Notes: generated by a model from the letters alone, not told the origin. DNA of 64,000 nt from an uncultured virus (IMG/VR IMGVR_UViG_3300030294_000026) (IMGVR_UViG_3300030294_000026:1-64000); one strand, 5' to 3'; numbered from the stretch's first letter, positions 5,962 to 56,675 are shown. Made by a program: numbers and translations.

Positions 5962-7647
5962 TTATTTTCTCCTTTCTTGATATTTACTCCATTTTGATTG
6001 TTTTGATTCTCTTGATTTTTTAGTAAAATCTATAGTTTTTTTAACATTTTCTTCTGATTTTTGTTCTTTTTCAGTATTTTCTTGTTGTTTTTCTTGATTT
6101 TCATTAATTAATAGTTCATTTTCTTTTTGAACAATATTCCCTTGATTGTCCAATTCCATAAACTCTTTATCTTTTTCTATTAATGGCTTTAAATAATCAA
6201 TAACCATTTTAGAATCTAAATATAATGTTTTCCCATGATATATTTCATCTGCAACTGCAATAAATTCTCTTTGTTTCTTTTGTCTAATTGCTAATGATGC
6301 CAATTCTCCTTCTCCTAATATAGTTAATGCACTAGCAGTATTGGGAAAATAAAAACAAATTTGATTCCCTAAATTTCCCTTTACATCTCCAGACATATGA
6401 GTAAGTGAACCTCTTTGAGTACAGAGAATACAATAAACTCCACTTGATCTACCTTCTCTAGCAAGCTTCCACATTAAAGCATTACATTTTTCTTTATCTT
6501 TTTTCTCATTATCATTTTCTTCAGCACCATTTACTGCAAAACTTGCGACCTCATCAATACAAAAGTATATAAGTGGTAACTTTATATCATGACAATCATT
6601 ATATTCATAAACATTGGTGATGCTTCCACTATCATCAACTTCATCAAACATTTTATTACGTCTTGAAACTTCTCTGCTTAGATACCTTAATTCTTTTAAA
6701 GCTGATTTAGTATCCTTAGCGTAATATTTGCAGTGTTTTATATTTTTAAACATTCTAAGATCTTGCTTATCACTCAGCATACAAATTGCTAATTGAACTA
6801 AACTTTCGTCATTACTTAATACTAAATTTAATAATCCCATTATCATAGATATAGTTTTTCCAGAACCTGCTGAACCTCCGATAAGAACATTTGGGCTGGT
6901 TTTAAAATTTAATATAATAGCCTTATAAGCATGTGTCATTCCATTATATAACTCCCAAGGTTTAACTTTAATTGGTTCATATTTTTCTTTATCAGGAACT
7001 TTAGTATTCATTATTTCTATACTTGTTTGATTTTTAGTATCATCAAAATGTAGGGAGCAAATTCCAAATATTTTATTTAAATCAACTATATTTTCTTCCA
7101 ATACATCATAACTAAGTCCATTTGGAATAGAAATTTTAAAGTTATAACCTATTAGCACTTTGTTTCCCTTTTTATCTAGTTTAGTGGGATGATATATTTT
7201 TTCAGATTCATCTAACTTGAATGTTTCACCATTACCATTCCTTTTTTTAGAGTCAGCAAATGCACTATACCAATTGAATTTGATTGAGTCTATTTCATTA
7301 ATATCTAATCCTTGCAAATGACATCTCATGTATATACTTGATTTAGTAGAACTATATTCTGCTATTACTTCACCTCTATAAACTACCCCGATTGCAGGTA
7401 ACAACTTTCTAAAATCATTTAAACTTTTTCCGTAAGGCATTACTACTATTACATCAAATCCATAATGTTTTATAAATATATCTTCTAGTACATAGTAGTT
7501 TGCTTTTTTATTAAAATCACTATAAGTTTTATTTGTTGGTACATCTTTACTTAAATCAATACTATTAACTCTTTCCATTAATATTTTCCATTTATTTTTT
7601 ATGTTGTTTTTAACTTGATGCTCTGCAAAATAACTACTTAACTCCAT
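5962..7647 (-). CDS. FtsK/SpoIIIE-family ATPase
   Basis: PNVLIGGSAGSGKT Walker A, FCIDEVA Walker B, LAREGRSSGVYCILCTQR. Confidence 0.9.
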   Translation of the reverse strand: MELSSYFAEHQVKNNIKNKWKILMERVNSIDLSKDVPTNKTYSDFNKKANYYVLEDIFIKHYGFDVIVVMPYGKSLNDFRKLLPAIGVVYRGEVIAEYSSTKSSIYMRCHLQGLDINEIDSIKFNWYSAFADSKKRNGNGETFKLDESEKIYHPTKLDKKGNKVLIGYNFKISIPNGLSYDVLEENIVDLNKIFGICSLHFDDTKNQTSIEIMNTKVPDKEKYEPIKVKPWELYNGMTHAYKAIILNFKTSPNVLIGGSAGSGKTISMIMGLLNLVLSNDESLVQLAICMLSDKQDLRMFKNIKHCKYYAKDTKSALKELRYLSREVSRRNKMFDEVDDSGSITNVYEYNDCHDIKLPLIYFCIDEVASFAVNGAEENDNEKKDKEKCNALMWKLAREGRSSGVYCILCTQRGSLTHMSGDVKGNLGNQICFYFPNTASALTILGEGELASLAIRQKKQREFIAVADEIYHGKTLYLDSKMVIDYLKPLIEKDKEFMELDNQGNIVQKENELLINENQEKQQENTEKEQKSEENVKKTIDFTKKSRESKQSKWSKYQERRK

Positions 7648-7649
7648 TA

Positions 7650-7931
7650 TTATCTGTCCTTTCTTTTATTAATTTTTTCAATTAATTTTGTCAATTCACT
7701 ATCATCGGATAAACCATCATTTTTTAGTGCCTTTAGAAAATGTTTTGTAAGTATAGGTGCAAATCCAACCATTGTGCCCTCTATCAACAACCACCATGGA
7801 GCGACTCCAGTTCCTCCAGCGAATGTAATCATAGTTCCAGCTTTATATAATCCATAAAATTTTGTAGAAAACATAAATGTTTCTGCTCCCAAAATACCCC
7901 AAGCACTGCCATATATAATTTTCTTAATCAT
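7650..7931 (-). CDS. Small membrane protein, first gene of FtsK operon
   Basis: Gly-rich hydrophobic segments; GAGGAG RBS. Confidence 0.7.
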   Translation of the reverse strand: MIKKIIYGSAWGILGAETFMFSTKFYGLYKAGTMITFAGGTGVAPWWLLIEGTMVGFAPILTKHFLKALKNDGLSDDSELTKLIEKINKRKDR

Positions 7932-8010
7932 GTATAACTCTCCTCTTTTTTGTTTATACTATATGTATATTCAGTTATTCTAAAAATGTGCTTAAAGGAG
8001 GTAGTTTTTT

Positions 8011-8577
8011 ATGTATTTAATTTTAGGCATTATATGTGTATTTATAATTGCATGTTGGATTGCTTCTGAGTGGATAATTCGCAGTAATTATAAAGATAGT
8101 CATGATGGTAAAAAATACAGTATAAACAGACAGTTAAAATTGATATCAGATTCTATAAATCAGCTTGACGGATTTGAATTTGAAGAATTTTGTATGTACA
8201 TGTTCAAATTAGGAGGATTAAATGCAAAAGTCACTAAGAAAACTAATGATGGTGGCAAGGATATAATAATTAAAGATAAAGATGGTATCATATATGTTGA
8301 ATGTAAGCATTACGCTGAAGAAAATAAAATTACAGTAAATTTAATTCATAAGTTAATAAGTGCATGTACTGTTGACAATGTAAAGCGTGGAATATTTATT
8401 ACCACTTCGGTTTATACAAGTTCGGCTATTGAGTTAATTAAGAAATGCAAAGCAGTTGATATAGATATATGGTATAAAGACGATGTTCTCGATTACTGTA
8501 GGAATATTGATAGAATAGTGTTATTAGAATGGCTAGGATATGATAGATATGAGGTGATGAAGTATTGTACAATATAA
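8011..8577 (+). CDS. Membrane-anchored Mrr-family restriction endonuclease-like protein
   Basis: N-terminal TM; LDGFEFEEFC, DGGKDII, YVECKHY, GIFITTS. Confidence 0.85.
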   Translation: MYLILGIICVFIIACWIASEWIIRSNYKDSHDGKKYSINRQLKLISDSINQLDGFEFEEFCMYMFKLGGLNAKVTKKTNDGGKDIIIKDKDGIIYVECKHYAEENKITVNLIHKLISACTVDNVKRGIFITTSVYTSSAIELIKKCKAVDIDIWYKDDVLDYCRNIDRIVLLEWLGYDRYEVMKYCTI

Positions 8578-8624
8578 AAATAAAGCCTATTCTATTTAAT
8601 TAATATTTAGAATAGGCTTTATTT
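8578..8624. terminator. Bidirectional intrinsic terminator
   Basis: AAATAAAGCCTATTCTA...TAGAATAGGCTTTATTT between convergent genes. Confidence 0.8.
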
Positions 8625-8634
8625 TTATATAAAA

Positions 8635-9750
8635 CTATTTTCCAAGATTCATATATTTATCTCTTATAGAAGATGATTTCCTTTTTGTACGGTCTATAGT
8701 TGTAGATGTCTTAGATTGAATACTTTTAGTATTATTAACCTTATTCATAATACTAAAATCAATCTCTATATCGTCCTTAATGCTATCCATACTTTGTTTT
8801 TCAACTTCTTTTTTCTTGTCCATTATACTTTTGTATGATGTTTTTAACTCTGTAATAATATTATTATTAAAGCTTGTACCTGCGGAAACGATAATATTTG
8901 TTTCATCATCCCAAACTGAGTCATGTGTAAAAGTAGCATAACCAAATAGATCCCTAATTAATTCTAAATTAATATCCTGCTTATGTTTTTTATTCAAAAT
9001 CATTCCATCTACTTTTGGATTCTTTAATGGTTCTACATATATACTTCTATTAACTGCATCAGATAATCCATTACCAAAATCATCATTGGCAAATTCCAAT
9101 ATTGTTGTAAATCCACTAGTTGTCAGTAAAACTTCTAATTCATTTTCATCTAAATTACCTTCTGCTGTAATATGATCGTAGTTTAATAATCTGGACATAG
9201 TGATTGAAAAATCTCTATTAATATCCATTTTATTCTCTCTTGAATTATTATCAAGTAATTGAATATTAGTAATAAAACCCTTACCATCATTATAAGCATC
9301 TCTTAATTGTTCTAAACTTTGAATTGCATTACCTTGCATTCCTAAGTCTTCATTAGCTCTTGGTAATACGGCTACTACATTAGATATCTTACCTTCTTCT
9401 CCATATATTTCACCAAAAGCTTCTGCAATTATACCACCCATTGTGCCTCCAGTTCCACCTGATAATGTATATACAAAGTAATATATCAATGAATTTGCAT
9501 ATCTTTCATAAATTCTTCTACAAATCTTATCGGCTATATCATCTTGGGTAATTACATTAATGGCATATTGTCTATTTTTAGCCATGCCTTTTAGTCCATC
9601 AATATGATATTTATTTTTATTATCTGTATCAATTGTTAGCAAATCCTCAAGACTTGTATTTACATAGAAAGCGTTACACCCTTCTTTTTCAAGTTCTCTA
9701 ACTATATTTCCTCCACCTTGACCGATTGCAATAAAAACTACGTTTTCCAC
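8635..9750 (-). CDS. tubZ: Tubulin/FtsZ-like partition GTPase TubZ
   Basis: FIAIGQGGGNI and tubulin signature SGGTGG, T7-like NLDENE, basic C-terminal tail. Confidence 0.9.
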   Translation of the reverse strand: MENVVFIAIGQGGGNIVRELEKEGCNAFYVNTSLEDLLTIDTDNKNKYHIDGLKGMAKNRQYAINVITQDDIADKICRRIYERYANSLIYYFVYTLSGGTGGTMGGIIAEAFGEIYGEEGKISNVVAVLPRANEDLGMQGNAIQSLEQLRDAYNDGKGFITNIQLLDNNSRENKMDINRDFSITMSRLLNYDHITAEGNLDENELEVLLTTSGFTTILEFANDDFGNGLSDAVNRSIYVEPLKNPKVDGMILNKKHKQDINLELIRDLFGYATFTHDSVWDDETNIIVSAGTSFNNNIITELKTSYKSIMDKKKEVEKQSMDSIKDDIEIDFSIMNKVNNTKSIQSKTSTTIDRTKRKSSSIRDKYMNLGK

Positions 9751-11495: not shown

Positions 11496-12260
11496 ATGTA
11501 CGGAATATATAATATTTATAGTAATGGTAAGCTAATTTATATTGGAAAAACAATTAATTTTTATACAAGATTAAAAACTCATATTTCACAACAACCTTGG
11601 AGTAATGAGATAACACACATTTCTGTTGCTAAATGCAAAACTAAAGTAGATATGGATTTATATGAAAAGTATTATATCAATAAACTAAATCCTAAATATA
11701 ATAAAGCAATTGTATACAATGAAACACCAACTTTTGCAGTAGAAGAATTAAACTTTCAAAGTTTTACTCTTGAAAAATTCTTAAAAATTAACGAACCAAA
11801 AAATCTGAGAAACAGCAATGTTAATAAAAGCTATGAGAAACGTAAATTAGAAATATCAGAATTTCTAAAAACTTCAGTTGAAATAAAAGATGGTATAAAA
11901 ATAGACTTTTCAAACTCCAATAATACATTGTATCATTGGTGGAATACACTTAAAACAGATATTAATTTTTTACACATAGACGGAGATATTCAATTCTTTA
12001 AGCAAATTTTAAAAGGTGTCAAAGAAAATAAGTATGAATTTATTTTTGAAAATAGTGAAGAAATTTTTAGAAACCTTGATTTATATAGCTTAGGATTGAG
12101 AATTGATAGTTATTCAATTAGTAATAAGAGAATCAGTAAAGGATTTACTGGAGTTAATTTCATTTTAGGAATGAATATGAATCCAAGAACAAAAGATGTT
12201 ACTGTAAGAGTAAATAGATATATGCTAGAAGAATATTTTGATAAGTATTTTATCTATTAA
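11496..12260 (+). CDS. GIY-YIG nuclease domain protein
   Basis: GIYNIY..LIYIGKT..RLKTH..YEKYYINKLNPKYN. Confidence 0.85.
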   Translation: MYGIYNIYSNGKLIYIGKTINFYTRLKTHISQQPWSNEITHISVAKCKTKVDMDLYEKYYINKLNPKYNKAIVYNETPTFAVEELNFQSFTLEKFLKINEPKNLRNSNVNKSYEKRKLEISEFLKTSVEIKDGIKIDFSNSNNTLYHWWNTLKTDINFLHIDGDIQFFKQILKGVKENKYEFIFENSEEIFRNLDLYSLGLRIDSYSISNKRISKGFTGVNFILGMNMNPRTKDVTVRVNRYMLEEYFDKYFIY

Positions 12261-14166: not shown

Positions 14167-14280
14167 TAGGGATAAATTTTGAGGTCGCTCCTCATTATTG
14201 ATAAGGCTATTTTATCAATCGGTAGCTTTCCCTACTTGCAATAGATTGGTAAATAAATTAAAATATAAGGAGATTGATAA
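14167..14280 (+). ncRNA. Putative cis-acting 3-way-junction/pseudoknot leader, copy A
   Basis: P1 TAGGGA/TCCCTA, P2 TGAGG/CCTCA, P3 GCTATT/GGTAGC; loop TTATCAATC complementary to 14244-14252 and 14272-14280. Confidence 0.6.
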
Positions 14281-14281
14281 A

Positions 14282-15193
14282 ATGATAGGAATTTACAAAA
14301 TTACAAATAAGATTAACGGGAGAGCGTACATAGGACAAAGTAAGAATATAGGAACACGATGGAGCAATCATATAAACAGACTTGAATGTAAAAAACACGA
14401 AAACAAAGAACTGCAAAAGGGTTTTAATAATTTTGGATACTTTAATTTCTCCTTTGAAATTATCGAAGAGTGTCAAGAAAAAGAATTATTATCTGTGGAA
14501 CTAAAATATATTAACCTTTATCAAGGCAATAGTTATAATATAACAAGTAATTCTAATAGTACTCTTTATGTTGATAATTTTAAATTTAATAAACATATAA
14601 ATATTAATTTAAATTATAATATTTTATCTCAAAGAGTAATTTTAACAGCATTAAAGAAATATTATGAAAGAAATACTAAAGAAATAAATATAGCATGTAG
14701 TGATATAATGAAAGAATATGATTTTGATCACTCGATATATTATAAAGGTATTCAAAGAATATATGATGAAATATCGCATTGTGAATTATTTGAACAAGTA
14801 TTAATTGAAAATTCATCTATTTTTAATTTGAAATTTAATGAGCAATATTACTTTTTAGCTAAATTGTTTTATGATAATAATATAATAGACAGTACAAAGA
14901 ATTTTATAAGACGTGGTTCGTTGAATTTATATGTAAAGATATTATGTAATAAGTTAAAGTTATATTATCATTTGGAAGATTTTAAAAGAGAATACAATAT
15001 AAATGAATTACCTTCATATAAACATTTTTCAAACATTAAAAGAATATTATTAATACCAATGATTGAAGAAATAGAACTAGTATTAAATAAAAATATAATT
15101 ATCGATGAACAAAAAGAAAGAGGAAAGATTGTAGGATTTAATATTATTACATCAAATACTCTACAAGAAACGCATTCTATACCCTCAAATTAA
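14282..15193 (+). CDS. GIY-YIG nuclease fused to Rep_3-like winged-helix region
   Basis: AAGGAG RBS before ATG 14282; GIYKITN..YIGQS; C-terminal YKHFSNIKRILLIPMIEEI..KERGKIVGFNI resembles Rep_3 WH2. Confidence 0.7.
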   Translation: MIGIYKITNKINGRAYIGQSKNIGTRWSNHINRLECKKHENKELQKGFNNFGYFNFSFEIIEECQEKELLSVELKYINLYQGNSYNITSNSNSTLYVDNFKFNKHININLNYNILSQRVILTALKKYYERNTKEINIACSDIMKEYDFDHSIYYKGIQRIYDEISHCELFEQVLIENSSIFNLKFNEQYYFLAKLFYDNNIIDSTKNFIRRGSLNLYVKILCNKLKLYYHLEDFKREYNINELPSYKHFSNIKRILLIPMIEEIELVLNKNIIIDEQKERGKIVGFNIITSNTLQETHSIPSN

Positions 15194-16688: not shown

Positions 16689-17573
16689 ATGAATAAAACA
16701 GAATACAAATTACATTATAATAATTTTGAAGAATTAAAAGTAAAAGGTGTTTATTTGATAAAGAATAAAGATAATGATAAATTAAAAATAGGTATAACCA
16801 ATAATTTAATGAGAAGGTTAAGTGAAATAAAAAAGAGTTTTCAATTTTGTGGAGTAATTCCAGAGTTAGATATAGAATGTTATATTGAATATAAACATAA
16901 TCTAGAATTAGAACAATATTTACATAAAGAATTAAAGGAATATAATTATCAGAATGAATGGTTTAGTATTGATAATATAGATATAGTATTAGAAAAATTA
17001 AATGATTTTAAATATGAAAAAGAACTCAAAGAAATTAAACCATTAATTAAAGAAAATTTTAATATACCTGAAGAAAATAATATAGATAAATTTATGGTAA
17101 AATCAATGAAATACTATTTATATAACCATTATGAGTGGCATGACTGTAAGAATTATACAAGATATAGTATTTATATAAAATGTAATGGAGACGAGTGGAC
17201 GGCATGTAGTATGATAGATGATATACAAGGAGATATATTTCATGATTGGAATTATTTCACGCATTGTTATGAAAAAGAACGTTATAATAAATTTGATGCT
17301 AGTGATGAATTAATAGATAAATTCAAAGAGTTAAATACTAACGCAATAATAAAAACAGAAAATGGAAATATAAATAGTTTAGAAGATCACTTTATACAAA
17401 AGTATAATAATTATTTATCAAATACATTAACCGATATTAAAGATTATATAAATAATACAGACGTTGAAATAGAGAATACATATGATATATCATTGAAAAG
17501 AGTTAAATTAGAAGAAAAAATTGAATATCTAATTAATAGAATGAAAACCATTAAAGAAAACTTAAGCATGTAA
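16689..17573 (+). CDS. GIY-YIG/T5orf172-like domain protein
   Basis: GVYLI..LKIGITNNLMRRL..LEQYLHKEL..NEWF. Confidence 0.8.
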   Translation: MNKTEYKLHYNNFEELKVKGVYLIKNKDNDKLKIGITNNLMRRLSEIKKSFQFCGVIPELDIECYIEYKHNLELEQYLHKELKEYNYQNEWFSIDNIDIVLEKLNDFKYEKELKEIKPLIKENFNIPEENNIDKFMVKSMKYYLYNHYEWHDCKNYTRYSIYIKCNGDEWTACSMIDDIQGDIFHDWNYFTHCYEKERYNKFDASDELIDKFKELNTNAIIKTENGNINSLEDHFIQKYNNYLSNTLTDIKDYINNTDVEIENTYDISLKRVKLEEKIEYLINRMKTIKENLSM

Positions 17574-18792: not shown

Positions 18793-19189
18793 TCATGTAT
18801 ATAATTTTAAAGGAGAAAATGAGATAGTTTTGGGTTTAATTTAAGTTTTAGAGTGGACAAGGTAGAATAAGTCTAGTTGATAATTTAAATTAAAATAAAG
18901 CCTAAAGTATTGATTTAAGTAAATATTTTATTAATTGTATTAGTTTGAGTTATATTTAAGAATTAAAAAGAGAGTAATGCAATTTATCGTTAATCTGACT
19001 GGAATGGAAATTAGAGTCAAAAGTATGTCAAAAAGTCCTTTAAAATTATATAGGGAGTGAGTATGTAAAGAGTGTTATAATAAATTAATTTATAAATAAC
19101 AGAATAAATTGCGTGTTTTATTGGAAATTTAAAAGAGAAATAAAGGAGAAAAATGACAATATATTAATATAAATAAGTGAGGTGACGGA

Positions 19190-20836
19190 ATGTCTAAACA
19201 ATTATCTAATCAGAAGAATATACTTAAAATACATACAAAAAGACTAAGAAAAAATAATTGGAGTTTAGACTTAGCATTGGAAGAAGCTAAAAAAAATAAA
19301 GAAGTTATTCAACTAGGAGATAGCCAAACTCTAAGATTTATTAATGAAATATTGGAAATAGAAAATCAAGATGAACAAATTAACAAAATAAAAGAAGAAA
19401 TAAAGGAACTTGAAAAATTAGATAACTCCATAGAAAATAGAAAAAAAATAAAAGAATTAAATAAAAAGAAAAATGGATTGAAATTTAATCAAGATTATTT
19501 ATGTTTGGTTATAGATAAAATTGGAGATTTTGATAAATGTAATAGAAGATGTAGTTTCTTTGTAAATGGGAAACAATTTGTAAGATTATTAGGAACTACA
19601 GGTGGAATAAAAAACGAAACTATAGTATACGTTAGTAGAGATGTATTTGACCAATTACATAAAAAATTGGATAATGGTAGAGATTTAGATAAACCTTTAG
19701 TTCCAGCTAAATTAGAAGCATATAAAGCATTATCTTGTAGTATGAGTGTTCCAGTTAGAGATCCAAAAAGCATATTGGTAGTAGATGATTGCATAACTCA
19801 TTTCAAAGAAGATATAATACAAATAGATGATTCTAAAGGAGAAAGACCAGTTTTAGAAATAATAAAAGATTTTGATGTTGAATTAATTGATAGTGATGGT
19901 TATGGTCTTATATCTCCACAATTAAGTAAGTTATGGGGAGTAGATATTAAAGAATGTGAATTAAAAGACAAATTTGTACCAACAGGTTTTTGTATTAGAA
20001 ATGCTTTTACTAAGGGAATGGTTTTTACATTTGATTTTAAGAGATTTGCAAAACAAATAGCACATAAAAAAATAGTTAAAGATGTGTGGGGGCAAGAGAG
20101 AAATATAAATAAAGTTGATTTAATATTAACTACTTCCATGCTTAAATTATGGGACAGTTATGAATCATTAGAACACTATTTAGCTTGTTGCAAAGAAAAT
20201 GAATGGACTTTTAGTATTACAAAAATGTGTCCAAAAGAATTAGAAAATGAAAGAACATTAAATTATCAATTTTTACAGTCTTTTAAACTTAATGATGAAG
20301 ATATTAAAGAATTAATTAAACCAACTGTAGATAGTATCAAAGACAGTTTAACAATGGACTATGCAAAAACATTACTATTCCTAAAGGGAACTAAATTGAA
20401 TGATAAAAACTCATTTGTTGGAGAAGATGATTATGTTAAAGCGTTAATGGTTGATGAAGAATTATTAAATGATCCTTATATACAAGATAGAGTATATAAT
20501 ATGCGAAAGAAACGTATTCAAGATGCAAAAGTTGGTGTTTTAAATATGCAAGGATGCTATGCTATAATATCTGGCGACCCCTATTCACTATGTCAAAGTA
20601 TATTTGGTTTAGATGTAACAGGATTACTAAAAGCCGATGAATTATATAGTAAATATTGGTCAGATAAGAACAGTAAAGAAATAATAGCTTTTAGAGCACC
20701 TATGACATGTCATAATAATATAAGAAAATTACAAGTAACATCTACAGAAGAAATGCAACAATGGTATAAGTATATGAAAACATGCTTGATACTAAATTCA
20801 TGGGACACCACAACTCATGCTGAGAACGGTGCCTGA
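19190..20836 (+). CDS. yonO: YonO-like single-subunit (double-psi-barrel) phage RNA polymerase, N-terminal part
   Basis: PAKLEAYKAL, DSDGYGLISP, GFCIRNAFTKG, LNYQFLQ, FRAPMT; ends ENGA immediately before the catalytic aspartates. Confidence 0.85.
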   Translation: MSKQLSNQKNILKIHTKRLRKNNWSLDLALEEAKKNKEVIQLGDSQTLRFINEILEIENQDEQINKIKEEIKELEKLDNSIENRKKIKELNKKKNGLKFNQDYLCLVIDKIGDFDKCNRRCSFFVNGKQFVRLLGTTGGIKNETIVYVSRDVFDQLHKKLDNGRDLDKPLVPAKLEAYKALSCSMSVPVRDPKSILVVDDCITHFKEDIIQIDDSKGERPVLEIIKDFDVELIDSDGYGLISPQLSKLWGVDIKECELKDKFVPTGFCIRNAFTKGMVFTFDFKRFAKQIAHKKIVKDVWGQERNINKVDLILTTSMLKLWDSYESLEHYLACCKENEWTFSITKMCPKELENERTLNYQFLQSFKLNDEDIKELIKPTVDSIKDSLTMDYAKTLLFLKGTKLNDKNSFVGEDDYVKALMVDEELLNDPYIQDRVYNMRKKRIQDAKVGVLNMQGCYAIISGDPYSLCQSIFGLDVTGLLKADELYSKYWSDKNSKEIIAFRAPMTCHNNIRKLQVTSTEEMQQWYKYMKTCLILNSWDTTTHAENGA

Positions 20837-21980
20837 CAAAGATTCAGATGCATTTATTACCACAGATAATCCAGTTCTATTGAGAACGTATGAAAAATTG
20901 TTGGCTATATTTTGTGTTCAAAAATCAGCACAAAAAATTAAAGTCACTGAAAAAAGTCTTATTAAAGCAAACAAAGATGGTTTCGGAGATGATATAGGTA
21001 CAACTACAAATAGAATAACTGAAATGTTTGATATATTAGCTAAGTTTAAAGAAGACTCATTAGAATATAAGGAATTAATGTATCGTATAATGTGTGGACA
21101 ACATTATCAACAATGTGCGATAGATAAAATCAAGGGCATAAAATCTAATCCTATGCCTAAAGAATGGTATGATTCAAGAGTAAATAGGATTAAAGTAGAT
21201 ACTAATACAGGAGAAATATTGGATAATGAAGAAATTATAAAATTAAAAGAGTTTAATACAAAAATTGTAGCTGATAAAAAACCATATTTCTTTATATACA
21301 TATATCCTCAATTAAAAAATTCATATGATAAATTTATAAAAGAAACTGAAAATAAATGTATTACTCAGTTTGGAATTTCATTAAATGAATTATTCAAAAA
21401 GAAGAATAAAAATGAGATAGAAGAAAGTTTCATAAAATATTACAACTTAAAAAATCCAGTTAGTAATAATAATTGTGTAATGAATAAAATATGCAGAGAA
21501 ATAGAAAGAGAGTTTAAAGGAATTAAAAACAAATTAAACAAAACAAAGTTTGATTATACTGTTTTAAAAACAGATGAAAAATACACAAAGAATACTTATA
21601 ATAAAATAAAAATCATATATGAAGAATACATGATTGAGTTGTCACAATTTAAAATGTTGTCTAAAAAGAATAGAGTAGGTAAAGAAGATAAAAACGATGG
21701 AATGATAATATTAAAACAAAACTTCAAAGAAAAATGTCAAGAAGAATGTATTAATAAAGATGAACTTTGCAATATATTAGTTGATATGTGTTATAATACT
21801 GAAAAATCTAAACAATTCGTTTGGGATATGTGTGGTAATCAAATAATAAATAATTTATTACATAAAAATAATTTCATTATTAACTATCCTGAATTAGATA
21901 ATATTAATGGAGATGTAGAATTTGGTGGAGAAAACTTTATTCTAAATACTATTGAAATAAAGAAAGGAGAAGATAAATAA
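20817..21980 (+). CDS. yonO: YonO-like RNA polymerase, C-terminal part (+1 frame)
   Basis: DKDSD catalytic motif, DIGTTTNRIT, QQCAIDKIKG, KKPYFFIYIY; no RBS before its own ATG. Confidence 0.85.
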   Translation: MLRTVPDKDSDAFITTDNPVLLRTYEKLLAIFCVQKSAQKIKVTEKSLIKANKDGFGDDIGTTTNRITEMFDILAKFKEDSLEYKELMYRIMCGQHYQQCAIDKIKGIKSNPMPKEWYDSRVNRIKVDTNTGEILDNEEIIKLKEFNTKIVADKKPYFFIYIYPQLKNSYDKFIKETENKCITQFGISLNELFKKKNKNEIEESFIKYYNLKNPVSNNNCVMNKICREIEREFKGIKNKLNKTKFDYTVLKTDEKYTKNTYNKIKIIYEEYMIELSQFKMLSKKNRVGKEDKNDGMIILKQNFKEKCQEECINKDELCNILVDMCYNTEKSKQFVWDMCGNQIINNLLHKNNFIINYPELDNINGDVEFGGENFILNTIEIKKGEDK

Positions 21981-22768
21981 TGAAATTAGAATTAAATGAA
22001 AATAGTAAAATAAAAACAATATTAGAAGAAGGTATAGTATCAGATAAACCAAGTGAAACTATTAACTTATTGGCTAGACATTATAATAAGCAGAGTATGA
22101 ATCAAGAGCAAATAGTACAAGCAATAAATAAATTTATGATAAAAAATGATTCTAGTAAGTATAATAGTGTTACTTGGGAAGATTTAGTCGAAGGAATAGT
22201 AAAGACAGTTATAAAAAATAATAATGATTTAATAGAGGTAAAAGAAGTTAAGATGACTAAATCAGAAATAGAATATATTAAATCATTAGAAAACGAGAAA
22301 ATGCAAAAATTAATCTTTACATATTTAGTGTATGCTAAAATATTCAATCAAATAAATTCTAAAAATAAGAATTGGGTTAAAGGAGAATGTAGGAATGAAG
22401 TATTTAAAGACGCAGATATAAAAGAGACTGGGAAGGAACAATTAAAAACAATACATAAGTTAGTTAGTCTTGAAGTATTAAAGATAGCTAAAAATATAAC
22501 AAATAATAGTGTTAATTTAGATAATGTAATTAATGATAATAGTGAAGCAGAGTTAATAATAAACGATTTTAGAGAATTAGGATTACAATGGCTTAGATAT
22601 ATAGGTATAAAAGGTGTGTGTAGTTGTAGTGAATGTGGAACGCTATTTAAAAAGAAGTCTCCTAATAGTAAACAAAAAGTTTGCAACATATGTGCAAAAA
22701 ATATAAAGAATGAACAGAATAAAGGTTATTATCATAATTTAGGAAAATGTAAAACAACGTCTAAGTAA
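21980..22768 (+). CDS. RNAP-linked hypothetical protein with C-terminal Zn ribbon
   Basis: TAATG coupling to RNAP; CSECG..CNIC. Confidence 0.75.
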   Translation: MKLELNENSKIKTILEEGIVSDKPSETINLLARHYNKQSMNQEQIVQAINKFMIKNDSSKYNSVTWEDLVEGIVKTVIKNNNDLIEVKEVKMTKSEIEYIKSLENEKMQKLIFTYLVYAKIFNQINSKNKNWVKGECRNEVFKDADIKETGKEQLKTIHKLVSLEVLKIAKNITNNSVNLDNVINDNSEAELIINDFRELGLQWLRYIGIKGVCSCSECGTLFKKKSPNSKQKVCNICAKNIKNEQNKGYYHNLGKCKTTSK

Positions 22769-24336: not shown

Positions 24337-24666
24337 ATGAGTAAAGTAAAAACAATTAAAAAGGACGAAATTTTAACAATTATTAAAGATGTATATGGAT
24401 TCTCTACAAAGAAAGAAGCTGAAACTAGATTTTGTGATTTGGATTCTTTAATAGAAGTTATTTCAAGTAATTTAAATGCTGGAGAAAAGGTTAATATAGG
24501 AAAGTATTTAGTTTTAGAAAAGAAGCATGTGGAAGCTAAACCATCTAAGAACGGAGAAATGACTAGAGTAATTGATGGAGTTAATACAAAAGTACCTTAT
24601 ACTACAGAAGCTAAACCAGAACACGATGAAGTTAGACTAAAATCAACCAAACAGTTAAATAAATAA
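24337..24666 (+). CDS. HU-family DNA-binding protein
   Basis: IKKDEIL..STKKEAE..GEKVNIGKYLVLEKKH..VRLKSTKQL; position matches SPbeta yonN. Confidence 0.75.
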   Translation: MSKVKTIKKDEILTIIKDVYGFSTKKEAETRFCDLDSLIEVISSNLNAGEKVNIGKYLVLEKKHVEAKPSKNGEMTRVIDGVNTKVPYTTEAKPEHDEVRLKSTKQLNK

Positions 24667-24683
24667 TAAATAGACCTTTGAGA

Positions 24684-24718
24684 AGGACTAGATTAGAAAT
24701 AATTAGTCCTTCTTTTTA
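24684..24718 (+). terminator. Intrinsic terminator
   Basis: AGGACTA...TAGTCCT followed by T-tract. Confidence 0.7.
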
Positions 24719-24814
24719 TATTAATCATAGAACTTATATTATTGTATAGGTTGTTAGTTAATATAAAACAAAAATATATACCGTATATATCGGTGGAGGG
24801 TTTGAGGGAGAATT

Positions 24815-26296
24815 ATGGGAGGAAAAAAGAATAAAGAAAATGAAATTGTAATAAGTTTAAATGGAAATCAATCACAAGAAGTAGTAGGCAGTAATATGAG
24901 CATTTCATATTTATCAGATACAGGTAGAAAATGTGTTTTAGTTGAATTAGGAATGATACAAAATAATGATATGGCTGACGAATATATACTAAATAAGGAA
25001 ATGTTAAATAATATTCCTATTAAAGAGTCAGATTATTGTTTTATGTTTCATTTACATTGTGACCATATTGGGCTGTTCCCGTCGCTATCTTCAATGGGAT
25101 TTAAAGGCAGGATAATAACAACAAAAACCAATGCAATATTATCTAAACCAATGTTAAAAGATTGCATTAAGATTCATGTAAAAAATTGTGAGTATTTAAG
25201 GGAGAATAAAGATAAATTTAAAAAGAAAATAAAAGGAAAAGTTAAAGAATTATTTGAAGAAAAAGACTTAGATAATGTAATGAGTATGATGGACGTTTAT
25301 GAATTAGATAACATACATCATTTAGATGATTATTTATCTTTTAGATTTACAAATAACTCACATATTATTGGTGCTACACAATTAGAGATTTTCATAAAGA
25401 AATTTGGAACAAATGTTGTAAAAAAGATTTGTATTACAAGTGACTTAGGAAATACAGATAATTATTCATATACATATTTTACAGAACCAACAATTCCAGT
25501 GTCTAGTTCAAATATTCTTTTCGTAGAAAGTACATATGGATTAGGAGATAGAAATTTCAACAAGAGAATTTGTATAGAAGAAAGAAAACAATTGGAAAAA
25601 GATATATTAGGATTTGTTAATTACAATCATTCATGTATGATACCATGTTTTGCTTTATCTAGGCTTAGCAATATGATGTGTTGGCTCTATGATACATTTA
25701 AAGATAGATGGGACATGTCTAAGCCAATTGTAATAGCAACTAATCTAGGTAAAAAAATAAATGATAAAATGTATGAAGTTTTGGATAATGAAGACTTGGC
25801 TTATTGGGATGAAGTTATGACTTGGAAAGCTTTTAAATTCATAAATGACAACAAGAGTTGTGAAGCGTTTGTTAATTCTAAACCAAAAAGCTATTTAGTT
25901 TTAAGTTCTAGTGGGATGATTTCGGGTGGGTTTAGTAATCTATTTGTTAATCAAATGTTACAAGATTCTCATAATGGAATATTATTTTGTGGATACTGCT
26001 CGCCAAATACAATAGGTGGTCAATTATTAGATGATAGTACAGATACAGTTATTGTTGATGGCAAGACATTAAAAAAGAGATGTATTGTGAAAAGATATTA
26101 TTCATTTAGTAGCCATGCATCACAAAAAGATATTATAAATTATATCAAACAATGTGATTGTCAAAAAGTAATATTACAACATGGTTCAAATGATGCAAAA
26201 GAAGAATTAAAGAAATTATCTGAAATAGAATTAAGCAAAATGAACAGAACAACAAAAGTTATTTCATCGTATAAGGATATGCAAATGACTTTATAA
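24815..26296 (+). CDS. Metallo-beta-lactamase / beta-CASP nuclease
   Basis: HLHCDH, SHIIGA, TSDLG, ESTYG, IPCFALSR, SSGM, FSSHA, LQHG. Confidence 0.9.
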   Translation: MGGKKNKENEIVISLNGNQSQEVVGSNMSISYLSDTGRKCVLVELGMIQNNDMADEYILNKEMLNNIPIKESDYCFMFHLHCDHIGLFPSLSSMGFKGRIITTKTNAILSKPMLKDCIKIHVKNCEYLRENKDKFKKKIKGKVKELFEEKDLDNVMSMMDVYELDNIHHLDDYLSFRFTNNSHIIGATQLEIFIKKFGTNVVKKICITSDLGNTDNYSYTYFTEPTIPVSSSNILFVESTYGLGDRNFNKRICIEERKQLEKDILGFVNYNHSCMIPCFALSRLSNMMCWLYDTFKDRWDMSKPIVIATNLGKKINDKMYEVLDNEDLAYWDEVMTWKAFKFINDNKSCEAFVNSKPKSYLVLSSSGMISGGFSNLFVNQMLQDSHNGILFCGYCSPNTIGGQLLDDSTDTVIVDGKTLKKRCIVKRYYSFSSHASQKDIINYIKQCDCQKVILQHGSNDAKEELKKLSEIELSKMNRTTKVISSYKDMQMTL

Positions 26297-26727: not shown

Positions 26728-26837
26728 AGTAGAGACAAATTAAGGAGTCATGACCTTAATTAAAATAGCTTATCTCAATCGGCTATGTCTCTATTTTATT
26801 AATGATTGAGAAATAAATTATAGAAAGAAGATTGAGA
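26728..26837 (+). ncRNA. Putative cis-acting 3-way-junction/pseudoknot leader, copy B
   Basis: P1 AGTAGAGAC/GTCTCTATT, P2 AATTAAGG/CCTTAATT, P3 ATAGCT/GGCTAT; loop TATCTCAATC complementary to GATTGAGA at 26804 and 26830. Confidence 0.65.
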
Positions 26838-26840
26838 AAA

Positions 26841-28271
26841 ATGAAAAAGATAAGTAGAAAAATAATTTTAGATAATTTACCTAGAATTAAAGAAAATAGA
26901 AATAAAGAACGTATAGATTGGAGAAATTCGATTGGATATACAATAAATTTTATATATGCTGAGGTAGAAGGTTCAGTTTATATAAAACAATATAATAATG
27001 ACAAAAGAGATTTGGTTATTGTATATAAAGGAGAAGATTTTCATATTACATGTGATAACCTTGCAAAATGTGCTTTTGGAAAAATTTTAGGATTAATGAC
27101 AAAAAACTTTAAAGTTGAAATAGGTACAAGATTTAAAGATAATAAAAGAGATATAACCATAACAGACAGAGAATATAGAAAAGATAAAAGGGGACAAAAT
27201 TGGAAATGGTATAAATACACTTGCAACACATGTAACTGGACAGAAGGTTGGGTTGAAGAAGGAAATTTGCAAAGAGGTGATAATTGTTCTTGTTGTCGTG
27301 GTCTTGTTGTTATAGAAGGAATAAACGATATACCTACAACTGCTCCTTGGTTAATTCCTTATTTTCAAGGTGGTTATAATGAGGCTAAATTGTACACTAA
27401 ATGGGGAACTGGAAACTCCAATAATTTTGGAGGTTATATAAATCCTGTTTGTCCAGATTGTATAAGAATCAAAGATAAAAAAATTAAAATTAGAGATATA
27501 TATACAAATAAATCAATAGGATGTATCTGTAGTGATGGTCAGAGTTTTCCTAATAAGACAATGTTTAATATTTTAGAACAATTAGGAATAGATTTTATAC
27601 CAGAATACAATCCAGAATGGATTAAACCTAAACGTTATGATTTTTATATACCTTCAATAAATAAAATAATAGAAATGGATGGACAATTTCATAAAAATAA
27701 CAATCAAATGAATGGACAAACTTCCAAAGAAAGTAATGAGTTAGATGAGTATAAAGATAATTTAGCAAGAGAACGTGATATAGAGGTTATTAGAATTGAT
27801 TGTGATTATCCTAACATGGAAACTAGATTTGAATATATAAAAAATAATGTAATTCATAATAGTAGATTAAATAATCTATTTGATTTGAGTAAAATAGACT
27901 GGTTTAAATGTAACGAATTTGCTTTAAGTAATCTAGTTAAAGTAGCTTGTGACTTATGGAATAAAGGAATATATAGTATAAAAGGAATATCTAGTATTAT
28001 GCATATAAATGTTACAACAACTAGAACTTATTTAAAGAATGGAACAGAAAATAGTTGGTGCAATTACAATGGTGAAAAAGAACAAAATAAAAATATTAAA
28101 CAAATGGCAAGTAAAATATCTAAACCCATAAAATGTTTAACTGATAATAAATCATTTAAAAGTATAGTTGAAGCATCAAAATATTATAATATGGGAGAAT
28201 CAACTATAAGCATGGTTTGTGGTGGGAAAAGAAAAACTGCGAAAGGTATGGTCTTTGAATATGAAATGTGA
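26841..28271 (+). CDS. Free-standing homing-endonuclease-like protein (Zn ribbons, PD-(D/E)xK/Vsr-like core, NUMOD1)
   Basis: CNTC, CSCC, CPDC; RYDFYI..IIEMDGQFH; FKSIVEASKY..ISMVCGGKRKTAKG. Confidence 0.8.
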   Translation: MKKISRKIILDNLPRIKENRNKERIDWRNSIGYTINFIYAEVEGSVYIKQYNNDKRDLVIVYKGEDFHITCDNLAKCAFGKILGLMTKNFKVEIGTRFKDNKRDITITDREYRKDKRGQNWKWYKYTCNTCNWTEGWVEEGNLQRGDNCSCCRGLVVIEGINDIPTTAPWLIPYFQGGYNEAKLYTKWGTGNSNNFGGYINPVCPDCIRIKDKKIKIRDIYTNKSIGCICSDGQSFPNKTMFNILEQLGIDFIPEYNPEWIKPKRYDFYIPSINKIIEMDGQFHKNNNQMNGQTSKESNELDEYKDNLARERDIEVIRIDCDYPNMETRFEYIKNNVIHNSRLNNLFDLSKIDWFKCNEFALSNLVKVACDLWNKGIYSIKGISSIMHINVTTTRTYLKNGTENSWCNYNGEKEQNKNIKQMASKISKPIKCLTDNKSFKSIVEASKYYNMGESTISMVCGGKRKTAKGMVFEYEM

Positions 28272-30355: not shown

Positions 30356-30967
30356 ATGGTGAAAGTTATGGGAGAAATATATCAACCAATAAACCGTCTT
30401 TTAGAAGAAATGAAATTAAGTGATTACTTACATAAAAATATAATATACCTCGATACAGAAGTAGATAGAGATAGTCAAGTAATGTTTTGTAGACAATTAA
30501 CAAAATTAGCAGAACAAGAATTAAGTAAACCTGAAAAAGAAAGACAACCTATAAAAATAAGAATTTCAAGTTTTGGTGGTTGGGTTGTAAGTTTTATGGC
30601 TTTGGCAAGTATAATGTTGCATTATCAAGAAAAGGGAATAATCATAGAAACTTACTGTGATGGGTTTTGTATGTCAGCAGGAGCTTATCTTTTAATGTTA
30701 GGGACAAAAGGACATAGATATGCTACTAGATTTTCAGATATATTAATTCACCAAACTCAGTTTTCATGTGGTGGACATCAAACTTATAGAGAAAAAGAAA
30801 AGAGTTTTGAATACGATAAAAGAGATTGGAAAATGTTATGTGATTTAATGAGAGACTATACCGAATTATCAGAAGAAGATATTGAAGGATTAACAAAATA
30901 TAACTTAGATATATCATTTAGTAGTATAGAAGCATTAGAACATGGAATAATTGATAAAATAATATAA
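30356..30967 (+). CDS. clpP: ClpP-family protease subunit
   Basis: ISSFGG, CMSAG (Ser), LIHQ (His), EALEHGIIDKI. Confidence 0.85.
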   Translation: MVKVMGEIYQPINRLLEEMKLSDYLHKNIIYLDTEVDRDSQVMFCRQLTKLAEQELSKPEKERQPIKIRISSFGGWVVSFMALASIMLHYQEKGIIIETYCDGFCMSAGAYLLMLGTKGHRYATRFSDILIHQTQFSCGGHQTYREKEKSFEYDKRDWKMLCDLMRDYTELSEEDIEGLTKYNLDISFSSIEALEHGIIDKII

Positions 30968-31663: not shown

Positions 31664-32022
31664 ATGAAATTAGCAAATGGAATTCAATTTAATGATGGTA
31701 CGAATTTAGAAGAATTTAAAGCACAAGTAGATTTACTTTCGGGTGCATCTGTTGAAGGTTCTAGCAATACAGATACGTCTTATGTAGATAATAAAGTAAG
31801 GAGGTTAAAGCTGAAATTACTGATGCTTTAGGAAAAGAAATAGCTGATTTATCTGCAAAGGTAAGTGGTATAGTAGTTCCTGATGTTAGTGGACTTGCTA
31901 AAGCAGAAGATGTAGATAGTAAGATTGCTACAGTTGTGGCTAGTTTGAATCAATTGATTACTGATTTACAAGCTGGAAAATATAATAGCATTGCTACAGA
32001 TGTTAGTGCTACAACAGTATAA
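31664..32022 (+). pseudogene. Frameshifted ~119-aa protein (1-nt deficit near 31798)
   Basis: AAGGAGG RBS, MKLANGIQF..VDNKV then EVKAEITDALGK..SATTV* in -1 frame; 359 nt; terminator follows. Confidence 0.7.
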
Positions 32023-32137
32023 TAATAAGATTATATGGATTAGATGACTAGGTGAATTTTGCCTAGTCTTTTAATTAAATTTTATTGTTTAGTAATGTTT
32101 ATCTATATTGGTAAGCAATTAAAATAATAAAAGGAGT

Positions 32138-55302: not shown

Positions 55303-55419
55303 GGAAGAAATAGATGTGGAATAAGGTTCGAAACTTATATTACATTGAACGGGCTATCTCCAATTAGCTTTTCTTCCTTTTTATTAATATTGGAGAAATA
55401 AATTAAATTATATTGGAGG
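55303..55419 (+). ncRNA. Putative cis-acting 3-way-junction/pseudoknot leader, copy C
   Basis: P1 GGAAGAAA/TTTCTTCC, P2 ATAAG/CTTAT, P3 GGCTA/TAGCT; loop TCTCCAAT complementary to ATTGGAG at 55389 and 55412. Confidence 0.65.
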
Positions 55420-55427
55420 AATTTAGG

Positions 55428-56675
55428 ATGAACATAGGTAACTTAGAAGTATATGGAATTATATATAAAGTTGAAAATTTAGTTAATGGAAAAGTTTATA
55501 TTGGACAAACTACAGAAGATAAAGGATTTGATGGACGATATTGTAGAAAAGGAGAAGATGTAGAAAGAGTTTATAAACAGAATAAAAGATTAAAAGAGTT
55601 AGGATTAAGTTATAATAAACATTTATTAAGTTCTATAGAAAAGTATGGTTTTGATAATTTTAAAGTAGATAAAGAACTTGATTATGCCTTTAGTCGCAAT
55701 GAATTAAATATAAAAGAACAATGTTGGATAAGTATTTTTAACAGTTTTAATAATGGATATAATAATAATCATGGAGGAGCTGGGAATTCAGGATATGAAG
55801 GGCTAAAAGGAATAGATAATCCTATGAGTAGAGAAGTTGTACAATTATCTTTAGAAGGAATTTTTATAAAAACGTGGGACTGTATGGAATATGTTTCTCA
55901 AGCATTAAATATAAATAAAGCACATATATGTGGAGTATGTAATAATACTTATGGAAGAAAATCAACTGGTGGTTATATGTTTATGTATAAAGAAGATTAT
56001 CAAAAACTAACTAATAAGGATACTATACATTATAATAACGAAATTGGAGAATATAACAAAGAACCAGTTATGCAATTAGATTTGAACGGTAAATTTATTC
56101 AAGAATTTAACTCTATTTCAGAAGCTAGTAGATTAGTAAATGGAGCAACAATAGCAAAGATATCTAAGTGTTGTAAAAAAGAGAGAAAGTCGAATGGTGG
56201 TTTCATATGGATATATAAAAAAGATTATTCTGATAACAACACGTATTCATGGAATGGCATACACAACGGAAAATCAAAAGAAGTTATACAATTATCTCTG
56301 AATGGTGATTTTATAAGTGAATATTCTTCTATTACTGAAGCTTCTAAATTTGTAAAAAATACATCAGTAAGTAAAATATCAAAATGTTGTAATGGAAATT
56401 CAAAATCTCATGCAAGTTATATATGGGTATTTAAAAATGATTATAATAAAGACATCAATTATAAGTTAGATACAAAACATACTGGAAAATCTAAAAAAAT
56501 AATTAAATTATCATTGAATGGAGATTTTTTAAATGAATATGATTCAGCAAAAGAAGCCGAAGAAAGTAATAATATATCAAGAAAAGCGATAACTAAATGT
56601 TGTAGTGGAAAAAGTAAAACATCAGGAGGATATATTTGGAAATATAAAGAAGATTATAATAAAATAGCAATATAA
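55428..56675 (+). CDS. GIY-YIG homing endonuclease with four NUMOD1 repeats
   Basis: GIIYKVEN..VYIGQT, NGYNNNHGG, 4x VxQLSLNGxFI..S..EA..ISKCC..GYIW. Confidence 0.9.
   Translation: MNIGNLEVYGIIYKVENLVNGKVYIGQTTEDKGFDGRYCRKGEDVERVYKQNKRLKELGLSYNKHLLSSIEKYGFDNFKVDKELDYAFSRNELNIKEQCWISIFNSFNNGYNNNHGGAGNSGYEGLKGIDNPMSREVVQLSLEGIFIKTWDCMEYVSQALNINKAHICGVCNNTYGRKSTGGYMFMYKEDYQKLTNKDTIHYNNEIGEYNKEPVMQLDLNGKFIQEFNSISEASRLVNGATIAKISKCCKKERKSNGGFIWIYKKDYSDNNTYSWNGIHNGKSKEVIQLSLNGDFISEYSSITEASKFVKNTSVSKISKCCNGNSKSHASYIWVFKNDYNKDINYKLDTKHTGKSKKIIKLSLNGDFLNEYDSAKEAEESNNISRKAITKCCSGKSKTSGGYIWKYKEDYNKIAI

Follow-up and report, generated by a model that had tools for sequence, protein, structure and literature searches.

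SPbeta YonO is a single-chain RNA polymerase with two barrels and an aspartate triad; the triad is reported to be essential for activity and the enzyme to be needed for late genes and plaques, and the gene lies upstream of the virion gene block of a large Firmicute phage and is described as giving one chain without recoding (PMC5467207). The stretch of DNA analyzed here, hereafter the window (64,000 nucleotides, nt, from an uncultured virus, IMGVR_UViG_3300030294_000026:1-64000, part of a 73.7-kb virus contig of ~26% G+C), carries a homologous gene in a similar position and with the same triad, but its frame is broken one codon before the triad, in the motif DKDSD. Judged by homology, a modelled two-barrel fold and the DxDxD triad, the gene is a YonO-type two-barrel RNA polymerase, and by likeness to SPbeta YonO it may transcribe late genes (PMC5467207). 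We consider it likely, with real room for doubt, that this gene works and that a +1 ribosomal frameshift at GCC-UGA-C yields its full-length product. Shifts of +1 at a stop codon are a known class of event, whereas this gene, position and motif appear to be new ones: in the literature searched, which comprised titles and abstract openings of mainly open-access papers, no frameshift is described for the RNA polymerase gene of any phage, YonO-type or otherwise, and no GCC-UGA site.

Several described shift sites share elements with the one proposed. At the yeast antizyme site GCG_UGA_C, which also has UGA-C in common with the window, the matched tRNA-Ala is absent and intrinsic shifting is given as 37%; this site and that of Ty3 (GCG_AGU_U) are described as combining a P-site Ala codon lacking its matched tRNA, a slow A site and poor +1 re-pairing (PMC5009743), as we propose here. 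Unlike the yeast sites, the window has a bacterial host, has GCC in place of GCG, and has no known polyamine or other signal. The Listeria phages A118, A500 and PSA, with +1 shifts at CCC_UGA, resemble it as low-GC Firmicute phages with a rare C-ending codon (~5%) before UGA; their shifts are described as adding a C-terminal extension to a structural protein, and CCC can re-pair at CCU (PMC5009743), whereas the unshifted product of the window would be without an active site. In prfB, with CUU-UGA-C, the stop is likewise UGA-C and the active product needs the shift (PMC5009743). Because the stop is UGA-C as in prfB, the level of release factor 2 (RF2) should set the shift rate. The prfB context that an earlier, sequence-only reading of this locus had invoked is otherwise a loose one: the P-site codon is GCC and not the slippery CUU, no internal Shine-Dalgarno (SD) sequence stands at the prfB position, 3 nt 5' of the P-site codon, and the feedback logic is missing.

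The window reads GAG AAC GGT GCC TGA C AAA GAT TCA GAT at 20822-20849. The first open reading frame (ORF1) ends at GCC-TGA-C (20831-20837), the stop at 20834-20836 interrupting what in YonO is a single continuous frame, and DKDSD continues in the +1 frame, which begins with the Asp codon at 20835 and stays open over 381 codons, as far as 21980. When GCCT is read as one four-base step, a single frame of 929 amino acids (aa) containing ENGADKDSD results; window letters, ORF coordinates and joined frame thus all agree with the sequence-only reading that a polymerase frame is split by +1 nt at its catalytic motif. The joined chain is collinear with an intact 923-aa relative, P0013 (81% and 70% identity in the two halves). 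ORF1 matches Pfam RdRP (E 9.6e-10), for which full-length chains gave no match, and SPbeta yonO (26.5% identity, E 1e-18, tblastn). A sequence match found no solved structure for the polymerase, and the fold comparison was made on the intact P0013, which stands in for the window chain: its model (pLDDT 90.6) has a two-barrel fold matching RDR2 (E 8e-17), QDE-1 and phi14:2 vRNAP. In this model the triad loop sits between helix 537-540 and strand 550-554, and the break would separate A544 from D545 within the loop that leads into the next strand. D545, D547 and D549 are invariant across 62 aligned homologues; since their consensus is GADKDSD, the serine once taken for an oddity is the normal residue in this motif.

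The break is real and present in the population. Three IMG/VR records (L001-L003) show 0 differences from the window over 7161 nt, a further one (L194) has the identical junction, and runs X6, X9 and X11, which carry no flag as possible sources, have contigs that span the site without a single differing letter or gap; these three runs are all peat, from 2019, and may share one campaign, and the 22 runs that best hold the phage are peat metagenomes. A wastewater contig (X23, record 9), used as DNA sequence alone and compared by counts of differing letters and gaps, matches 19217-21061 end to end (1845 nt) with 129 differences and 0 gaps; because it spans the site without a gap, a lineage ~7% diverged keeps the frame offset. 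Nor is the observation a product of chance: a generic motif pattern found at least 117 in-frame matches in IMG/VR as against 3 with the extra base, all three from this phage. A sequencing or assembly error at C/CC, raised by the sequence-only reading, has in its favor that CC is a two-base run, yet the identical base recurs in other assemblies, other runs and diverged lineages; we regard this explanation as refuted by the other records and runs and the wastewater contig, and give it next to no credence. An indel at 31798 had been cited in support of such an error. A small gene at 31664-32027 is indeed split near 31798, where the frame passes from 0 to 2 by 1 nt; G001-G003 and run X9 show the identical split, which was not found in G004; as this frame change, too, is real in the population, it lends no support to error.

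Among protein relatives, the best 120 of 4446 matches reach down to 52% identity, so that the near clade is covered within the searched length limits. ENGA-stop ends 9 of the 11 clade proteins (78-99.8% identity; JGI, Logan, ENA and NCBI sources), and the comparison with homologues that the sequence-only reading had called for therefore finds the break conserved. By cluster, the HAENGA end occurs in 5/5 of the ORF1 cluster, 2/2 of the P0014 cluster and 2/4 of the P0013 cluster, the remaining two of which are full length. Eight distinct C-halves (P0006, P0007, P0009, P0010, P0132, P0133, P0252 and P0253) start inside the +1 overlap with MLRTVPDKDSD, MLRTEPDKDSD or VPDKDSD, two others (P0008, P0134) being shorter and uninformative at the junction, and the codon string given in Table 1 is the only one that fits both frames; for P0253, with its shorter overlap, GGT GCC TGA Y is deduced. 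Halves were paired by the equal size of their longest contigs, which yielded six putative N/C pairs, one with consecutive accessions (WP_346938155.1/156.1). P0002/P0253, 94% identical to the window in the N-half and only 79% in the C-half, has the look of a mosaic, the crossover in this polymerase gene lying downstream of the break. From these protein comparisons, the break is old, spanning about 20% amino-acid divergence.

It is at the same time a trait of the clade and not of the family, because within IMG/VR the extra base is confined to this phage. Three pattern searches found no independent +1 sites elsewhere in IMG/VR (the second pattern had 8 matches, 3 of them records of this phage and 5 without a polymerase match; the third had 0), and a metagenome scan gave 2 matches, one split and one intact. 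No close relative was found in GTDB genomes (0/363 candidates with the N-half; the C-half gave 33 loci, all distant) or in Clostridiaceae (3/381 scored genomes matched, all distantly, with 20 further genomes outside scoring). The 9 split and 2 intact proteins form one clade (support 100/99), in which the intact pair is nested as sister to the second split subclade. Forcing the split rows together was rejected for the N-half (approximately unbiased, AU, test, p 0.031) and not for the C-half (p 0.096). Given the nested pair and these tests, we infer that the extra base was either gained once and then lost by one reversion, or gained twice at the same position, and reversion is favored because the intact nested relative reads GGA GCT GAT, which is GGA GCC TGA T minus one C. 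On the evidence of the tree, this nested intact allele shows the break to be dispensable.

The gene does not appear to be decaying, because both halves shun changes at conserved columns as intact relatives do. With conserved columns scored on 81 outside homologues and variable sites counted within all-split subclades, the variable sites at conserved columns numbered 3/54 (16.0 expected, p 5.8e-6) and 1/34 (7.6 expected, p 0.0014) in the window subclade and 4/67 (19.8 expected, p 5e-7) and 1/79 (17.7 expected, p 4e-9) in the other split subclade; the intact controls had 6/119, 7/130, 16/121 and 5/112. No split member has lost any of the 53 near-invariant columns of the C-half. It weighs against this argument that the protein search returns unbroken halves, leaving decayed copies invisible, and for that reason a neutral simulation (P of no stop ≤0.0065) was set aside. 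The same under-sampling, together with the intact allele within the clade and the second real 1-nt break near 31798, is what a dead gene could claim in its support, the break then inactivating the polymerase and the phage being either defective or complemented by relatives. Against it, constraint in the all-split subclades equals that of the intact controls, the identical break is found over about 20% divergence, the portal, capsid-like and tape-measure genes of the phage are full length, and a lysin and an integrase are present in G002, a longer record of this phage; neither the relaxed selection nor the further lesions of a pseudogene were found. An inactivating mutation, the second branch of the sequence-only reading, is thus largely refuted and in our estimate quite unlikely. 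A conserved frame break with purifying selection on both frames is instead what programmed +1 shifting would leave, which supports the recoding branch as far as the shift itself goes; a regulated switch on late transcription, the other part of that branch, is a possibility.

Under the proposed mechanism, ribosomes would load at the strong SD of the polymerase gene, which pairs at least as strongly as those of 56 of 71 other ORFs, and would arrive with GCC in the P site and UGA in the A site. The host probably has no tRNA-Ala(GGC), so tRNA-Ala(UGC), its third pair weak, would occupy GCC; release at UGA-C would be slow, and tRNA-Asp would read GAC one base on, giving ...ENGA-DKDSD... and a chain of 929 aa. 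Non-shifting ribosomes would release a 548-aa piece without the catalytic aspartates, the net effect being a lowered level of an enzyme that, by analogy to SPbeta YonO, would serve late-gene transcription. Of 151 Clostridiaceae genomes, 3 showed a tRNA-Ala(GGC) motif, as against 4 of 5 controls from other families, with a looser pattern (the strict one, 0/151, was dropped, having found just 1/5 controls), and 135 of the 151 a tRNA-Ala(UGC) motif. GCC TGA is retained in 8/8 informative C-halves, as against a 55-66% difference at four-fold sites between the window and L004, and the GGT/GGA variation is silent in frame 0 yet changes V to E in the +1 peptide.

A number of points weigh against this mechanism. 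The codons of split relatives are, the X23 gap count apart, deduced from two peptides, and retention of GCC and AAC is suggestive only, because the background also keeps C-ending codons (3/8 four-fold, 11/39 two-fold, in few lineages). The host is taken from one relative labelled uncultured Clostridium. Near the site there is no SD at the prfB spacing, just an overlapping GGUG and a weak GGGA 26 nt upstream, and no unusual RNA fold that might stimulate shifting (z -0.9 to +0.2). Re-pairing from GCC to CCU has a first-position mismatch, and the no-slippage class of shifts is, in the literature consulted, documented in yeast and not in bacteria; the sequence-only reading was right that re-pairing would be poor, but this fits the near-cognate P-site class (yeast GCG-UGA-C) and is in itself no argument against a shift. 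A weak ATG 17 nt before the stop, finally, is conserved in 7/8 C-halves. No RNA dataset among those listed holds the polymerase gene, and a promoter scan stayed at chance level (30 observed, 32.8 expected). Phase variation was rejected because CC is no slippery run; other TGA-ending ORFs with long overlapping frames were also set aside, as they look like ordinary ATGA/TGATG coupling.

The conserved ATG leads to the main rival, in which ribosomes reinitiate after UGA at ATG 20817 (or GTG 20829) and two chains assemble, the aspartate loop lying at the N-terminus of the second. Such a two-chain enzyme would explain selection on both halves equally well; translational coupling with a weak ribosome-binding site is described as possible (PMC3711429), and split phage nrdA and topoisomerase genes are reported to remain functional (bioRxiv 2022.08.31.505936). 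We nevertheless think it improbable, though it deserves serious weight. SD pairing before the ATG (-3.9 kcal/mol) is weaker than that of all but 4 of 71 ORFs (median -8.6 kcal/mol); the earlier remark that the downstream ORF has no ribosome-binding site therefore holds in relative terms, but reinitiation needs little of one. The GTG (-1.5 kcal/mol) is GAG in P0133 and P0252 and so unconserved, and the ATG is a by-product of His CAT followed by the G of Ala that occurs in intact genes too. A coupled split gene would be expected to have a conserved start within ~10 nt of the stop, whereas here the GTG at -5 is unconserved and the conserved ATG lies at -17 with its weak SD. The cut, moreover, is one residue before the first catalytic Asp and would leave the catalytic loop open; for jumbo phage polymerases, the split in beta-prime is described as lying after the barrel (PMC7598289), and the functional split enzymes described in bioRxiv 2022.08.31.505936 bear added tails of ~44 aa, absent here.

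The same downstream frame would be reached by a -2 shift, with tRNA-Ala re-pairing at GUG to give ENGAPDKDSD, or by four-base reading with a dedicated suppressor tRNA, and for the yeast site the potential for -2 re-pairing has been considered (PMC5009743). The -2 codon is GAG in the second subclade, however, an extra Pro would enter a loop of fixed length in the homologues listed, and neither the window nor 4 other pieces of the phage, whose genome is incomplete, yielded a tRNA gene; we see a small chance at best for either route.

The break lies 3-9 bases upstream of group I intron insertion sites of relatives. Among 103 loci, 63 have an intact motif, 4 are this phage and 29, many of them near copies, carry an insert of 0.26-1.1 kb at the motif, the rest being cut off with an intron-like 3' end (5) or uninformative (2). 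The insert in L015 has an Rfam group I match, and that in L017 encodes an HNH domain above the cut-off. In relatives with inserts at DxD^xD it is this same catalytic motif that is interrupted; the window has a single extra base upstream of it and no intron: neither Rfam at two thresholds nor a motif scan found a group I intron in the window, there is no insert at the motif, and 0/9 split proteins, few and related, have an intron there. A second insertion site, D^xD, probably exists, judging from proteins that end in NGAD. Proteins ending in NGAD or NGADKD were rejected as frameshift candidates and read as intron-split, because the partner halves begin further along, at later codons. L059 and L061, together with P0016, P0019, P0032, P0071 and P0072, show signs of a second intron site behind the first Asp; for P0019 there is an intact sibling, P0259, whose N-half is identical, so this insert is polymorphic. 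Several introns interrupt each of the polymerase genes at L066:939-5737, which five tRNA genes then follow, and at L063:3284-3614. In phage c-st (AP008983.1:164469-167548) the annotation divides the homologue at this motif into two ORFs with ~330 nt between them, where an intron has probably gone unannotated. At L210:4000-4020, in a single metagenome-assembled genome, a polymerase frame changes just after the motif behind a run of T, and this may be an error.

That group I introns target this motif in relatives speaks for removal of the extra base at the RNA level, whether by trans-excision by a group I ribozyme or by transcriptional slippage. The longest run at the site is CC, however; the Rfam group I model, which missed several clear introns elsewhere, had no match in the window at either threshold; and by ribozyme chemistry, excision of a G after U would be expected to give GPDKDSD or to lose the first Asp, while the GGA variant is without the U. 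We hold such removal to be very unlikely.

Why the break is kept is a separate question from how it is read. A tolerated indel with a compensating frameshift is the simplest account of its retention, and a single reversion among 11 sequences is as compatible with a neutral compensated indel as with a benefit. Because the site lies 3-9 bases from group I insertion sites, we propose that the extra base may block homing nucleases, in the manner of the insert in T4 gene 60. The gene 60 bypass is likewise a translation-corrected insert in a conserved phage enzyme gene, near the target of a homing nuclease, MobA (PMC5009743; bioRxiv 2022.08.31.505936); unlike that insert of 50 bases, ours is one base with no RNA structure. 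Protection against MobA is reported as shown for gene 60 (bioRxiv 2022.08.31.505936), and is a guess for the window. Intron nucleases in polymerase genes are described as used against co-infecting phages, and the gene type of PhiPA3 gp210, with its group I introns, is that of the window (PMC11620839). A brake on leaky late transcription is also possible, in which a strong leaky polymerase would harm the lysogen and UGA would tie output to RF2. A selected device, in which the one-nt insert hides the motif from the HNH nucleases of relatives or ties late transcription to the RF2/tRNA state of the host, at the cost of a yeast-type +1 shift without re-pairing, is a tentative idea that we would put well short of probable.

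Table 1. Coordinates, in window numbering, of the polymerase gene, its junction and adjoining features.
Feature	Position	Strand	Basis
SD GAGGTGA of polymerase gene, strong	19179..19185	+	-9.9 kcal/mol against anti-SD
ORF1, predicted N-terminal 548 aa of YonO-type two-barrel RNA polymerase, ending HAENGA-stop	19190..20836	+	Pfam RdRP, yonO homology, purifying selection
Conserved junction CAT GCT GAG AAC GG(T/A) GCC TGA Y	20816..20837	+	Window letters and codon strings deduced from relatives
Possible reinitiation starts in +1 frame, ATG 20817 and GTG 20829	20817..20831	+	SD -3.9 and -1.5 kcal/mol
Proposed P-site codon GCC (rare Ala codon)	20831..20833	+	60/1038 Ala codons (5.8%)
Extra base, one of C-C-T	20832-20834	+	Intact nested relative reads GGA GCT GAT
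Proposed slow A-site stop UGA-C	20834..20837	+	TGA ends 8/72 ORFs, TGAC 2/72
ORF2 frame, predicted C-terminal 381 aa of polymerase	20835..21980	+	Open +1 frame, joined translation, purifying selection
Predicted catalytic aspartate triad DKDSD, first codons of +1 frame	20835..20849	+	Invariance in homologues, modelled loop
Intron-site equivalents DxD^xD (20843/20844) and probably D^xD (20837/20838), empty here	20837..20844	+	Inserts in relatives
Conserved downstream neighbor, 262 aa, TAATG one-base overlap with polymerase stop, own strong SD	21980..22768	+	phrog_30716; SD -8.6 kcal/mol

Downstream of the polymerase gene, the one-base overlap with the 262-aa neighbor is the same in the intact relative; this neighbor, which carries two CxxC pairs, is a candidate promoter-specificity or accessory factor. 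Free-standing endonuclease genes of GIY-YIG, T5orf172 and NUMOD type lie at 11496-12260, 14198-15193, 16689-17573, 26832-28271 and 55413-56675, three of them in the 8 kb that precede the polymerase gene, where the intact relative G004 has other genes. Genes for FtsK, an Mrr nuclease, a tubulin-like GTPase, an HU-like protein, a beta-CASP nuclease and a ClpP-like protease (5962-9750, 24337-26296 and 30356-30967) form a set that suggests a large plasmid-like temperate phage. Between G002 and G000 the offset shifts by ~90 bases from window 32100 to 62939, so an indel lies somewhere in that stretch.

Known phage frameshifts are mostly extensions on structural proteins. If the proposed shift is true, an essential phage RNA polymerase would hang, all or none, on a frameshift one codon ahead of the catalytic aspartates, and GCC-UGA-Y would be a new bacterial shift motif, short enough for a reporter-ready test of near-cognate P-site +1 shifting as in yeast. 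Annotation pipelines now enter such split polymerase genes as two hypothetical proteins. With split and intact alleles in one clade and introns at the motif in sister clades, a benefit of the break is directly testable; were it a selected device, it would amount to T4 gene 60 in minimal form and, within the literature searched, to the first RNA polymerase gated by recoding.

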